From Squalus acanthias (taxonomy: Eukaryota): 64,000 bases of DNA. The stretch spans positions 15,934,001 through 15,998,000 of the forward strand of contig CM059451.1 in the NCBI GenBank assembly GCA_030390025.1, in the 5' to 3' direction. Made by a program: the position numbers and the translations under genes. The notes under the pieces were generated by a model. The model made no database searches, was not told the DNA's origin, and saw only the letters and a list, made by a program, of their open reading frames with translations. Shown piece by piece: positions 783-64,000 of the stretch (position 1 is the stretch's first letter; each line of letters begins with the position of its first letter).

Positions 783-48309
<47,527 letters not shown>

Positions 48310-59992: not shown

Positions 59993-60586
59993 ACGATTAA
60001 AAAACAGCAGCTGCAGGAGCATTTCAAAAGGTTTGGGGGAGAAAGGGCAGGGGGACGGGATTAAATGGATTGCTCTTTCAGTGAGCTGGCGCCGGCACGA
60101 TGGGCTGAATGGCCTCCTCCTGCACTTAAAAATTCTCGGTCGGTCGGCATCCGAAAGGGGAAAGGCAGCTGAACGGTTTTTTTTTGGGTGGAGGCACTTC
60201 TTCAGAGCTCTCTGGAGTTGTCATTTTGGGAAAATAATTTTAAACAAAATGGAGAAAATTGCAATGGGGCGTAGCTTTTAACATAAATATTTCCCGCTGG
60301 TGTCCATGGGCAGAGCCGGCAGTCCTGGAGCTTCCCAAAGTACACAAAGGTTCAAATTACAGGACGATATCATCTTGCAAGCTCGTCTGCTGGAACTGGT
60401 TTTTCTTCTTTGAGGCGTAAATTGTGCAATGCAACAGCGAGGGGAACTTTATTCACCGAGCAGACACGGAAATGGTAACTTGGGGATTTAGGCGGTGCTG
60501 CTGTCACTTCTGTTTACATGTTCACAGGGTGGCCAACTCACCAGGATTGTCCTGGAGTCTCCAAAAACTGATTAAAAGATGCTGCA

Positions 60587-62801
60587 ACTGGGGTACGGGT
60601 TCCAGAGACACTGACTCTCACTGGGGTACAGGTTCCACAGACACTGACTCTCACTGGGGTACAGTTCCACAGACACTGACTCTCACTGGGGTACAGGTTC
60701 CACAGACACTGACTCTCACTGGGGTACAGTTCCACAGACACTGACTCTCACTGGGGTACAGTTCCACAGACACTGACTCTCACTGGGGTACAGTTCCACA
60801 GACACTGACTCTCACTGGGGTACAGTTCCACAGACACTGACTCTCACTGGGGTACAGTTCCACAGACACTGACTCTCACTGGGGTACGGGTTCCACACAC
60901 ACTGACTCTCACTGGGGTACAGTTCCAGAGACACTGACTCTCACTGGGGTACAGTTCCACGGGCACTGACTCTCACTGGGGTTTGGGTTCCACAGACACT
61001 GACTCTCACTGGGGTACAGGTTCCAGAGACACTGACTCTCACTGGGGTACAGTTCCACAGACATTGACTCTCACTGGGGTACGGGTTCCAGAGACACTGA
61101 CTCTCACTGGGGTACAGTTCCACAGACATTGACTCTCACTGGGGTACGGGTTCCACGGGCACTGACTCTCACTGGGGTATGGGTTCCACAGACACTGACT
61201 CTCACTGGGGTACGGGTTCCACACACACTGACTCGCACTGGGGTACAGTTCCAGAGACACTGACTCTCACTGGGGTACAGTTCCACGGGCACTGACTCTC
61301 ACTGGGGTATGGGTCCCAACTACACTGACTCTCACTGGGGTACGGGTTCCACAGACACTGACTCTCACTGGGGTACGGGTTCGGGTTCCAGAGACACTGA
61401 CTCTCACTGGGGTACGGGTTCCAGAGACACTGACTCTCACTGGGGTACAGTTCCACGGGCACTGACTCTCACTGGGGTACGGGTCCAAACTACACTGTAC
61501 ACTGACTCTCACTGGGGTACAGTTCCACACACACTGACTCTCACTGGGCTACAGTTCCACACACACTGACTCTCACTGGGCTACAGTTCCACACACACTG
61601 ACTCTCACTGGGGTACGGTTCCACAGACACTGTCTCTCACTGGGGTACGGGTTCCACATACACTGACTCTCACTGGGGTACAGTTCCACACACACTGACT
61701 CTCACTGGGATACAGTTCCACACACACTGACTCTCACTGGGGTACAGTTCCACACACACTGACTCTCACTGGGGTACGGGTTCCACAGACAATGACTCTC
61801 ACTGGGGTACAGGTCCCACAGACACTGTCTCTCAATGGGGTACAGTTCCACAGACACTGACTCTCACTGGGGTACAGTTCTCCAGACACTGACTCTCACT
61901 GGGGTACGGGTTCCACAGACACTGACTCTCACTGGGGTACAGTTCCACAGGCACTGACTCTCACTGGGGTACGGGTTCCACAGACACTGATTCTCACTGG
62001 GGTACGGGTCCACGGACACTGACTCTCACTGGGATACGGGTTCCACACACTGGCTCTCACTGGGGTACGGGTCCACGGACACTGACTCTCACTGGGGTAC
62101 AGTTCCACAGACACTGACTCTCACTGGGGTATGGGTTCCACAGACACTGACTCTCACTGGGGTACAGTTCCACACACACTGACTCTCACTGGGGTACAGT
62201 TCCACAGACACTGACTCTCACTGGGATACAGTTCCACACACACTGACTCTCACTGGGGTACAGTTCCACACACACTGACTCTCACTGGGGTACGGGTTCC
62301 ACAGACAATGACTCTCACTGGGGTACAGGTCCCACAGACACTGTCTCTCAATGGGGTACAGTTCCACAGACACTGACTCTCACTGGGGTACAGTTCTCCA
62401 GACACTGACTCTCACTGGGGTACGGGTTCCACAGACACTGACTCTCACTGGGGTACAGTTCCACAGGCACTGACTCTCACTGGGGTACGGGTTCCACAGA
62501 CACTGATTCTCACTGGGGTACGGGTCCACGGACACTGACTCTCACTGGGATACGGGTTCCACACACTGGCTCTCACTGGGGTACGGGTCCACGGACACTG
62601 ACTCTCACTGGGGTACAGTTCCACAGACACTGACTCTCACTGGGGTACGGGTTCCACAGACACTGACTCTCACTGGGGTACAGTTCCACAGACACTGACT
62701 CTCACTGGGGTATGGGTTCCACAGACACTGACTCTCACTGGGGTACAGTTCCACACACACTGACTCTCACTGGGGTACAGTTCCACAGACACTGACTCTC
62801 A
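60587..62801 (+). repeat. 32-33 bp minisatellite array, about 68 units
   Basis: Unit ACTGGGGTAC(A/GG)GTTCCACAGACACTGACTCTC in direct tandem. Confidence 0.97.
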
Positions 62802-62857
62802 TTATTAGATTCAGACTCTCCACACTTCAGATTTCTCACCGTATCTCCTGAAGGCGC

Positions 62858-63871
62858 TGGAACTGTACCCCAGTGAGAGTCAGTGTCTGTGGAACTGTAC
62901 CCCAGTGAGAGTCAGTGTCTGTGGAACTGTACCCCAGTGATAGTCAGTGTGTTAGGAACCCGTACCCCAGTGAGAATCAGTGTCTGTAGAACTGTACCCC
63001 ACTGAGAGTCAGTGCCTGTGGAACTGTATCCCAGTGAGAGTCAGTGTGTTAGGAACCCGTACCCCAGTGAGAATCAGTGTCTGTAGAACTGTACCCCACT
63101 GAGAGTCAGTGTCTGTGGAACTGTACCCCAGTGATAGTCAGTGTGTTAGGAACCCGTACCCCAGTGAGAATCAGTGTCTGTAGAACTGTACCCCACTGAG
63201 AGTCAGTGCCTGTGGAACTGTATCCCAGTGAGAGTCAGTGTCTGTGGAACCCGTACCCCAGTGAGAGTCAGTGTGTGTGGAACTGTACCCCAGTGAGAGT
63301 CAGTGTGTGTGGATCTGTACCCCAGTGAGAGTCAGTGTGTGTGGATCTGTACCCCAGTGAGAGTCAGTGTCTGTGGAACCCGTACCCCATTGAGAGTCAG
63401 TGTCTGTGGAACTGTATCCCATTGAGAGTCAGTGTGTGTGGAACTGTACCCCAGTGAGAGTCAGTGTGTGTGGAACTGTACCCCAGTGAGAGTCAGTGTC
63501 TGTGGAACTGTACCCCAGTGAGAGTCAGTGTCAGTGGAACCTGTACCCCAGTGAGAGTCAGTGTGTGTGGATCCCATACCCCAGTGAGAGTCAGTGTCTG
63601 TGGAACTGTACCCCAGTGAGAGTCAGTGTCTGTGGAACCCGTACCCCAGTGAGAGTCAGTGTGTGTGGAACTGTACCCCAGTGAGAGTCAGTGTGTGTGG
63701 AACTGTATCCCAGTGAGAGTCAGTGTGTGTGGAACCTTTACCCCAGTGAGAGTCAGTGTCTGTGGAACCCGTACCCCAGTGAGAGTCAGTGTGTGTGGAA
63801 CCCGTACCCCAGTGAGAGTCAGTGCTGTGGAACCCGTACCCCAGTGAGAGTCAGTGTGTGTGGAACCCGTA
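62858..63871 (-). repeat. Same minisatellite in inverted orientation, about 31 units
   Basis: Unit TGGAACTGTACCCCAGTGAGAGTCAGTGTCTG is the reverse complement of the left-array unit. Confidence 0.97.
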
Positions 63872-64000
63872 GAAAATAAGAAAAGAATTGCTCAAGATTA
63901 ATCGAGAAATGTTGGTTTAATTTATTGAGCCTTCCAGATGGCACGTGTGTTGCCCAGGATAAAATATGATGCGGAGTAGTCTGTGTTGTATGTCGACTTC

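Follow-up and report, generated by a model that had tools for sequence, protein, structure and literature searches.

How does a tandem repeat come to face itself, in opposite orientation, across a short piece of unrelated DNA? The window analysed here, a stretch of 64,000 nucleotides from Squalus acanthias, presents such an arrangement near its end, and a preliminary description had reported two opposed arrays of one 32-33-bp minisatellite with abrupt outer edges, which slippage alone could not have produced without an inversion or a template switch. Our analysis leads to the same starting point. The structure at 60587-63871 is real, with 68 units forward, a 56-bp spacer and 31 units reversed. 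TRF delimits an array of period 32 at 60587-62801 (68.0 copies) and a second one on the opposite strand at 62858-63866 (31.2 copies), and the right arm extends to 63871. The 21-mer core of the unit has 98 matches in the window, all of them within the two arms (0 in 100 shuffles), and both outer edges are indeed abrupt. We regard the whole structure as most likely a scar left by a single episode of DNA break repair, as opposed to a new mobile element. Its parts, from left to right, are:

60525 to 60575, + strand: 5' part of a small MITE-like interspersed repeat, the likely insertion target
60572 to 60586, + strand: TT/AAAA site with the left member of a loose 13-14 bp duplication, noticed post hoc
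60587 to 62801, + strand: left arm, in which the 32/33-bp minisatellite is repeated 68 times in antisense to its parent SINE-like repeat
62802 to 62859, + strand: spacer, 58 bp of a multicopy C2H2 zinc-finger gene that probably correspond to its first, non-coding exon
62858 to 63871, - strand: right arm, 31 units in reverse orientation, with the SINE sense on the + strand
63872 to 63880, + strand: short A-rich stretch, either a degenerate tail or part of an A-rich target
63881 to 63903, + strand: right member of the loose duplication, which overlaps with another match to the MITE-like repeat

The spacer between the arms measures 56 bp, the last 2-3 bases of the 58-bp fragment being common to the fragment and the right arm.

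Comparison of the two arms provides insights into their history. The term palindrome is justified at the level of the repeat unit and goes no further, as the arms are not mirror copies and differ both in their variants and in the order of their units. The left arm holds 30 unit variants and the right arm 18, with five common to both and placed in a different order. The longest exact match between the arms is 109 bp, the best local alignment matches 928 of 1009 aligned bases, and at the level of units 226 of 400 order shuffles align equally well, which means that the arms are not collinear. A recent internal duplication of 516 bp (16 units) is seen in the left arm, where an exact run of 440 bp extends from 61692 at lag 516, while the right arm has a private 3-unit higher-order repeat, whose marker variant occurs three times in the genome, all at this locus. 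Private variants and separate higher-order repeats in each arm argue against a fold-back read or an assembly chimera, since a fold-back event yields exact mirror arms. An artefact of assembly or library would agree with the lack of a contig across the joint in the seven public runs examined. In one of two comparisons no contig was 99% alike to the spacer, so that those runs probably represent other species or individuals, and in the other the repeat swamped the outcome; we consider an artefact extremely unlikely.

Variant sharing between the arms is no greater than between unrelated arrays. The nearest variant spectrum to that of the right arm is the spectrum of the left arm, narrowly (1.06 versus 1.08), and the reverse does not hold. 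Common descent of the arms had been proposed on the basis of a rare marker pair, present in both arms and, by exact pattern, in 0 of 25 other arrays; it was not upheld. The arms have one exclusive doublet in common, and at least one such doublet is found in 97 of 351 array pairs. The potential for a hairpin, already pointed out in the preliminary description, is substantial: 661 nt at the centre of the locus fold at -510.8 kcal/mol (z = -28 versus 20 shuffles). Arms that mismatch at 8% of positions and are separated by 56 bp are unlikely to extrude as a cruciform from duplex DNA, and a hairpin in single-stranded DNA or RNA is possible. A long hairpin would form only if the locus were single-stranded or transcribed, and dsRNA from the inverted arms is possible on folding grounds in the case of transcription; we assign no function to the locus.

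The minisatellite itself is widespread. In the 3.71 Gb of genome searched, a 52-mer of the unit has 11,641 exact matches. Sister units of 33 and 43 bp contain the core of the unit, with 2,192 exact matches for one 31-mer, and arrays of the family are present on many contigs. On comparison with a profile made from 17 copies, all free of arrays, of an old interspersed repeat, the 32-, 33- and 43-bp units match the last 60 bases of this SINE-like repeat (positions 343-402 of 422), with scores of 10-16.6 bits that 0 of 200 shuffles reached for each of the three units. Three overlapping minisatellite families appear to have grown from one SINE-like tail. The parent is called SINE-like because of a motif near its head, recognised by eye in the profile, which we take to be B-box-like. 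A search of 550 kb found no partner LINE for the parent repeat, Rfam gave nothing near cut-off in two loci, and the available text of PMC5499810 and PMC5381603 does not name it. At the locus studied here, the right arm reads in the sense of the SINE-like repeat and the left arm in antisense. No paper on the minisatellite family was found in the open-licence literature (main texts), and the family may already be catalogued in repeat libraries.

Edges of the other arrays bear on how the family spreads. They fall at scattered phases of the unit, with no exact target-site duplication (TSD) above 5 bp and no common tail. Where an array edge cuts a known repeat, 2-6 bases are common to both (L067, L098, L102, L107 and L111, by eye), and among the arrays that cut a known repeat none has both flanks continuing in one repeat copy. 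A SINE body adjoins the array, by profile search, in only three cases, all of the 43-bp type (L050, L112 and L113; the background is 8 of 400 windows on that strand), so that most arrays were probably copied to their sites and not grown there from the SINE. The SINE-like profile has no match in the outer flanks of the palindrome, and the lack of a SINE-linked terminal unit points to a dispersed copy at this locus as well.

Several further observations concern the family and its parent. Near the start of the longest contig (G000:C1:1.53-2.94 Mb), the 43-bp arrays all lie on the + strand (7 of 7 among the matches listed; L045, L050, L067, L111-L115, L133), two of these seven, L050 and L112, being paralogous. 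Near the far end of the same contig G000:C1 the 32-bp arrays lie on the - strand, again among the matches listed, a pattern that amounts to a polarity towards chromosome ends. At G000:C23:59.648 Mb (L137), two SINE-like 3' ends stand tail to tail and contain the derived core of the minisatellites, which makes these copies a candidate parent subfamily. Two arrays (L041:8505 and L045:1803) end exactly at the short-repeat tail of a LINE, which is presumably of CR1 type, in opposite relative orientations. Old copies of the SINE-like parent are found near the palindrome and unjoined to it, at L011:288-640 (about 290 bp past the end of the window) and at window positions 32230-32563 (-) and 46022-46340 (+). 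Short shark chromosomes are described as richer in simple tandem repeats in the available part of bioRxiv 10.1101/2022.10.17.512540.

The spacer had been regarded as unique, and it is not: there are 698 candidate matches, and among the 40 scored, 39 lie elsewhere at 94% identity. Its nearest paralogs show three differences in 58 bases. In 13 of 13 paralog contexts CAG stands before the sequence and a GT donor-like site after it, a GC-rich promoter-like stretch lies upstream, and the five paralog loci that were followed further all lead, on the same strand, to a reading frame for C2H2 zinc fingers, two of them confirmed by Pfam. This anatomy of the paralogs (promoter-like stretch, donor-like site and downstream zinc-finger frame) is the reason for the label of first exon; the spacer, which ends at a predicted splice donor, probably represents the first exon in a large family of C2H2 zinc-finger genes. 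RNA-labelled contigs from two runs include 82-180 bases from the promoter side, and one of them continues into the intron, and they therefore confirm neither the start of the spacer as a transcription start nor its splicing.

At the right inner joint three bases are common to the spacer and the right arm, and at the left inner joint the end of the left arm is a 4- to 6-base near match to the bases that lie upstream of the exon in the gene. The joint of exon and array has a single match in the assembly, at this locus, and the joint predicted for a single-orientation donor is absent from the assembly (exact patterns were used, and the assembly may be incomplete). A 17-base segment of the spacer agrees with the 43-bp sister unit at 16 positions, and the spacer has no match to the SINE-like profile. 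At L035:5709-5810, two tandem pieces of the SINE-like tail are placed beside a zinc-finger promoter-like stretch; these pieces and the 16/17 match in the exon suggest that the leader of the zinc-finger family took up SINE-tail sequence. The minisatellite unit was also considered as exon 2 of the zinc-finger genes, and this was rejected, with no unit in the five genes followed to their coding exon and no spliced copy. Zinc-finger paralogs carry a different minisatellite, of 27-bp units, about 70 bp into the first intron (L002:1630-2815, L004, L032, L036, L039, L096).

The left outer flank corresponds to the first 51 bases of a small repeat that we take, from its 5' end, to be MITE-like. This sequence is found at 39 other places with 83-97% identity over about 45 bp, among 40 scored, and a profile of 19 copies matches the flank with an E value of 6e-18. 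On the right, positions 63883-63903 give a median score of 11 against the 19 copies, a value reached by 0 of 3000 random 40-mers, and a second possible register directly at the array edge has a P value of 0.002; nhmmer called neither of the two registers. Since both outer flanks match one MITE-like repeat, the locus looks like one insertion, and on this alignment the most likely target of all 3.3 kb is a single copy of the repeat. The outer flanks are not inverted copies of each other.

That the insertion carries no TSD, as first described, is correct for exact duplications (the longest exact repeat near the edges is 6 bp and does not abut them) and has to be qualified for a loose duplication of 13-14 bp. 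The latter has two indels in 14 bases and, taken alone, a P value of 0.012-0.02. TT/AAAA is found at 60572-60577, and 135 of 200,000 random left flanks do equally well for this site and the loose duplication jointly, a coincidence that was noticed post hoc. Before the right copy of the duplication runs an A-rich stretch of nine bases, six of them A (scan-corrected P 0.003, but the scored tract overlaps the loose duplication), with no poly(A) signal. On the antisense strand this edge has T at 11 of 15 positions, compared with 1-8 at 28 other such array edges. All of these L1-type marks (site, duplication and A-rich stretch) were noticed post hoc, and they overlap one another.

If the locus belonged to a class of mobile elements, other inverted pairs might share its termini or spacer, and such a comparison had been suggested as a check. 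Four gap searches of the genome, with gaps up to 110-150 bp and exact 11-14-mer cores, which makes their count a lower bound, found orientation switches at at least nine array loci, with different joints, both geometries and no significant polarity. Terminal pairs are convergent at C28, C438, C3812, C3101 and C19 and divergent at C3 and C3644, whereas C922 and C3531 contain internal inversions. Two further matches of the gap searches are not array pairs, one being a chance 26-bp palindrome and the other two SINE-like tails back to back. A polarity limited to convergent pairs (the first four terminal pairs versus 0) was lost in matched looser searches, which gave 5 versus 2. When about 23 arrays were sampled irrespective of orientation, one had an inverted arm (5 units) within the stretch seen, some far ends being unseen. 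Foreign filler is present in two of the nine loci, the palindrome locus and C3812, and the two fillers differ. Unique joints, differing fillers and the presence of both geometries argue that these loci are not a family of elements and leave a Foldback element unsupported.

Some of these loci deserve description in their own right. A larger palindrome of the same minisatellite family, spacer-less and with 108 + 44 units, lies at G000:C438:793.5-798.5 kb (L041), and its arms share variant composition (score 42.5, compared with at most 21.6 for other arrays). The convergent pair at G000:C3812:13.7-16.5 kb (L042) has 75 + 8 units and a 70-bp GA-rich filler. The arrays of 33-bp units with internal inversions at L038 (G000:C3531:3000-12999) and L144 are repeated within a tandem segmental unit and stand just upstream of an apparent leader exon; in another copy there are 46 units in each direction.

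The origin of the palindrome can now be considered. With a probability of about one half, we explain it by a complex templated insertion at a DNA double-strand break, followed by separate slippage in each arm. Taking the family, its match to the SINE, the identity of the spacer, the flanks and the unique joints as found, we infer the path of repair from the likeness to cases in yeast and Drosophila. A broken end inside the MITE-like repeat would prime on an array of the minisatellite family through a few matching bases, and synthesis would then switch template to a copy of the zinc-finger gene and from there to the opposite strand of an array. Alternatively, two broken ends might each copy an array, with the zinc-finger fragment bridging them. 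The product would be sealed into the break, after which each arm would mutate and grow separately by slippage or unequal exchange. In favour of this path are the microhomology at both inner joints (three bases on the right and the 4- to 6-base near match on the left), the match of both outer flanks to one repeat, the scattered phases of the other arrays, which have no exact TSD above 5 bp and no common tail, and the occurrence of orientation switches in both geometries, with a second pair (C3812) that also contains foreign filler. By analogy, distant inverted double insertions that favour repetitive DNA at yeast breaks, and the microhomology-led spread of a satellite in Drosophila, would be consistent with it. 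The inner pieces come from one family, with no excess of variant sharing to indicate one donor locus, and no donor array for either arm was found in the genome (by exact patterns, in an assembly that may be incomplete). Break repair by itself leaves unexplained the TT/AAAA site with the loose duplication, the A-rich stretch on the sense side and the end of the fragment at a predicted splice donor, and the yeast insertions taken as its analogy, of 50-150 bp, are far shorter.

An RNA intermediate is possible, though doubtful. Under twin priming, an array-exon-array RNA would have been copied by a LINE reverse transcriptase from both ends of the target, with inversion of its 5' part. The order of duplication, inverted part, sense part, A-rich stretch and duplication is that of a 5'-inverted retrocopy as given in the available text of PMC2912911, and TT/AAAA at 60572-60577 with the loose 13-14 bp duplication is in agreement with it, but two indels in 14 bases are a poor fit for such a duplication. 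Exon, SINE-sense arm and A-rich stretch all lie on the + strand, yet the tail has nine bases, three of them other than A, and no poly(A) signal. The left arm, once turned round, ends in the very three bases found before the exon in 13 of 13 paralogs, as 2 of 32 phases would, and the sense array is poor in TT for a primer ending in AA (6 in 2215 bases versus 6 in the 58-base exon). Against this, no donor is present, each predicted joint being found only here or nowhere; other arrays have neither tails nor TSDs; the convergent bias disappeared in the matched control; and the supporting marks are all post hoc and overlapping. Twin priming on a second RNA is described in the available text of PMC4476161, while that of PMC4245944 reports no 5' inversions for ZfL2-1 in culture, and the whale shark is without a full LINE-1, though Tx1 is present (PMC8455134). 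A search with PF02994 (L1-clade) gave 0 matches, and its control was likewise without a match anywhere. More doubtful still is the specific proposal that RNA of the SINE-tail array was re-inserted by a non-L1 reverse transcriptase (Tx1, CR1 or L2), the locus being a twin-primed retrocopy with a zinc-finger exon. Were the RNA reading true, it would mean an RNA route for the spread of satellites, with kilobase hairpins, and it would place exon capture and twin priming in a lineage presumed to be without full L1.

Rearrangement in place is distinctly improbable. Here a single-orientation array that already contained the zinc-finger filler would have had its left 2.2 kb turned round. Turning the left arm back restores the 4-base microhomology with the bases upstream of the exon in the gene, inversions within arrays are known at C922 and C3531, and the arms at C438 show how variant composition can be shared (42.5 versus at most 21.6). 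At the palindrome such sharing is no higher than among unrelated arrays, the nearest spectrum links right arm to left only narrowly (1.06 versus 1.08) and not vice versa, and the breakpoints must hit exactly the outer edge of the array and the edge of the filler. Arms no more alike than random members of the family would be expected if two arrays had inserted independently on either side of a zinc-finger fragment already in place, and the 16/17-base match of the fragment to the 43-bp unit could attract a homology-led insertion. Three separate events would have had to strike one spot, the registers in which the two flanks match one repeat overlap, and both inner joints have microhomology, which makes this account very unlikely; the two insertions 56 bp apart of the preliminary description fare no better, with a spacer that is foreign to the locus and flanks that match one MITE-like repeat. 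The same description had raised a Foldback-like element, here taken as a Foldback-type DNA transposon with modular arms. Long inverted arms of tandem repeats round a non-coding middle are known from Tetris (available text of PMC4079207), but the arms of the palindrome are not mirror copies and have no common non-repetitive outer domain, there is no exact 8-10 bp TSD (the longest exact repeat near the edges is 6 bp and does not abut), and no second copy with these joints exists, as other inverted pairs differ in joints, spacers and ends. The probability of such an element is minimal.

An alpha-actinin gene has its last two coding exons at window positions 45358-45515 and 48136-48306 on the + strand (PDB alpha-actinin-1, E 3e-22; Pfam EFhand_Ca_insen, E 3e-20), and the palindrome lies 12.3 kb beyond the second of these. 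Among 181 non-repeat open frames, which run from 36 kb of the window up to 20 kb past its end, no other Pfam match was above cut-off. As we read it, the locus is the fossil of one repair event. It is useful as a marker, exposing three overlapping minisatellite families with thousands of unit copies at dispersed loci, and its joints preserve a record of how arrays arrive at new sites, a general question in satellite biology.

Known systems resemble the locus in different parts. Foldback transposons (Tetris, Galileo and FB, in the available text of PMC4079207) have tandem repeats inside their inverted arms and a middle part that is non-coding, whereas the palindrome is without a flanking domain, mirror symmetry and 8-10 bp TSD, and is present in a single copy. 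Twin-primed, 5'-inverted retrocopies of L1, SVA and mRNA and U5/L1 inverse chimeras, as far as the available text of PMC2912911, PMC4476161 and PMC4245944 describes them, agree with it in the order of parts, in TT/AAAA, in a duplication length near 13-15 bp and in short microhomologies; unlike these retrocopies, the locus has no exact TSD, no clear poly(A) and no donor. The same texts report that inversions are rare for RNAs moved in trans (4 of 477 SVA) and give none for ZfL2-1.

Distant inverted templated insertions, described at double-strand breaks in yeast (Yu et al., bioRxiv 10.1101/2024.03.07.583931, in its available part), offer two pieces of like origin in opposite orientation, with microhomology at the ends and between the pieces and a preference for repetitive donors. 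Median pieces there are 50-150 bp and come from mutant yeast, whereas the arms here are of kilobase size, having partly grown later, with a third, foreign piece between them and a putative common donor. The Rsp-like satellite of Drosophila simulans and D. mauritiana (Sproul et al. 2020, PMC7403614, available text) is likewise dispersed as short arrays with joints at microhomologies. Its variable joints contain unannotated filler of 5-397 bp, and MMBIR, FoSTeS, SDSA or eccDNA have been proposed for them. Unlike the arrays described here, those of Rsp-like enter an older satellite, and the words inverted and opposite are absent from the available text.

For the family as a whole, the closest likeness in kind is to the squamate sSat1-3 (Vassetzky et al. 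2023, PMC10702118, available text), which are also tandem arrays at many loci, derived from a short SINE segment and with overlapping unit types. Most sSat arrays retain a longer terminal unit that runs into the SINE, while here a profile match to the SINE body lies beside three arrays of the 43-bp type and not at the palindrome, and an inverted pair with gene filler is not mentioned for sSat in that text. Judged by its match to the SINE-like tail, the minisatellite family is a shark-type example of SINE-derived satellites.
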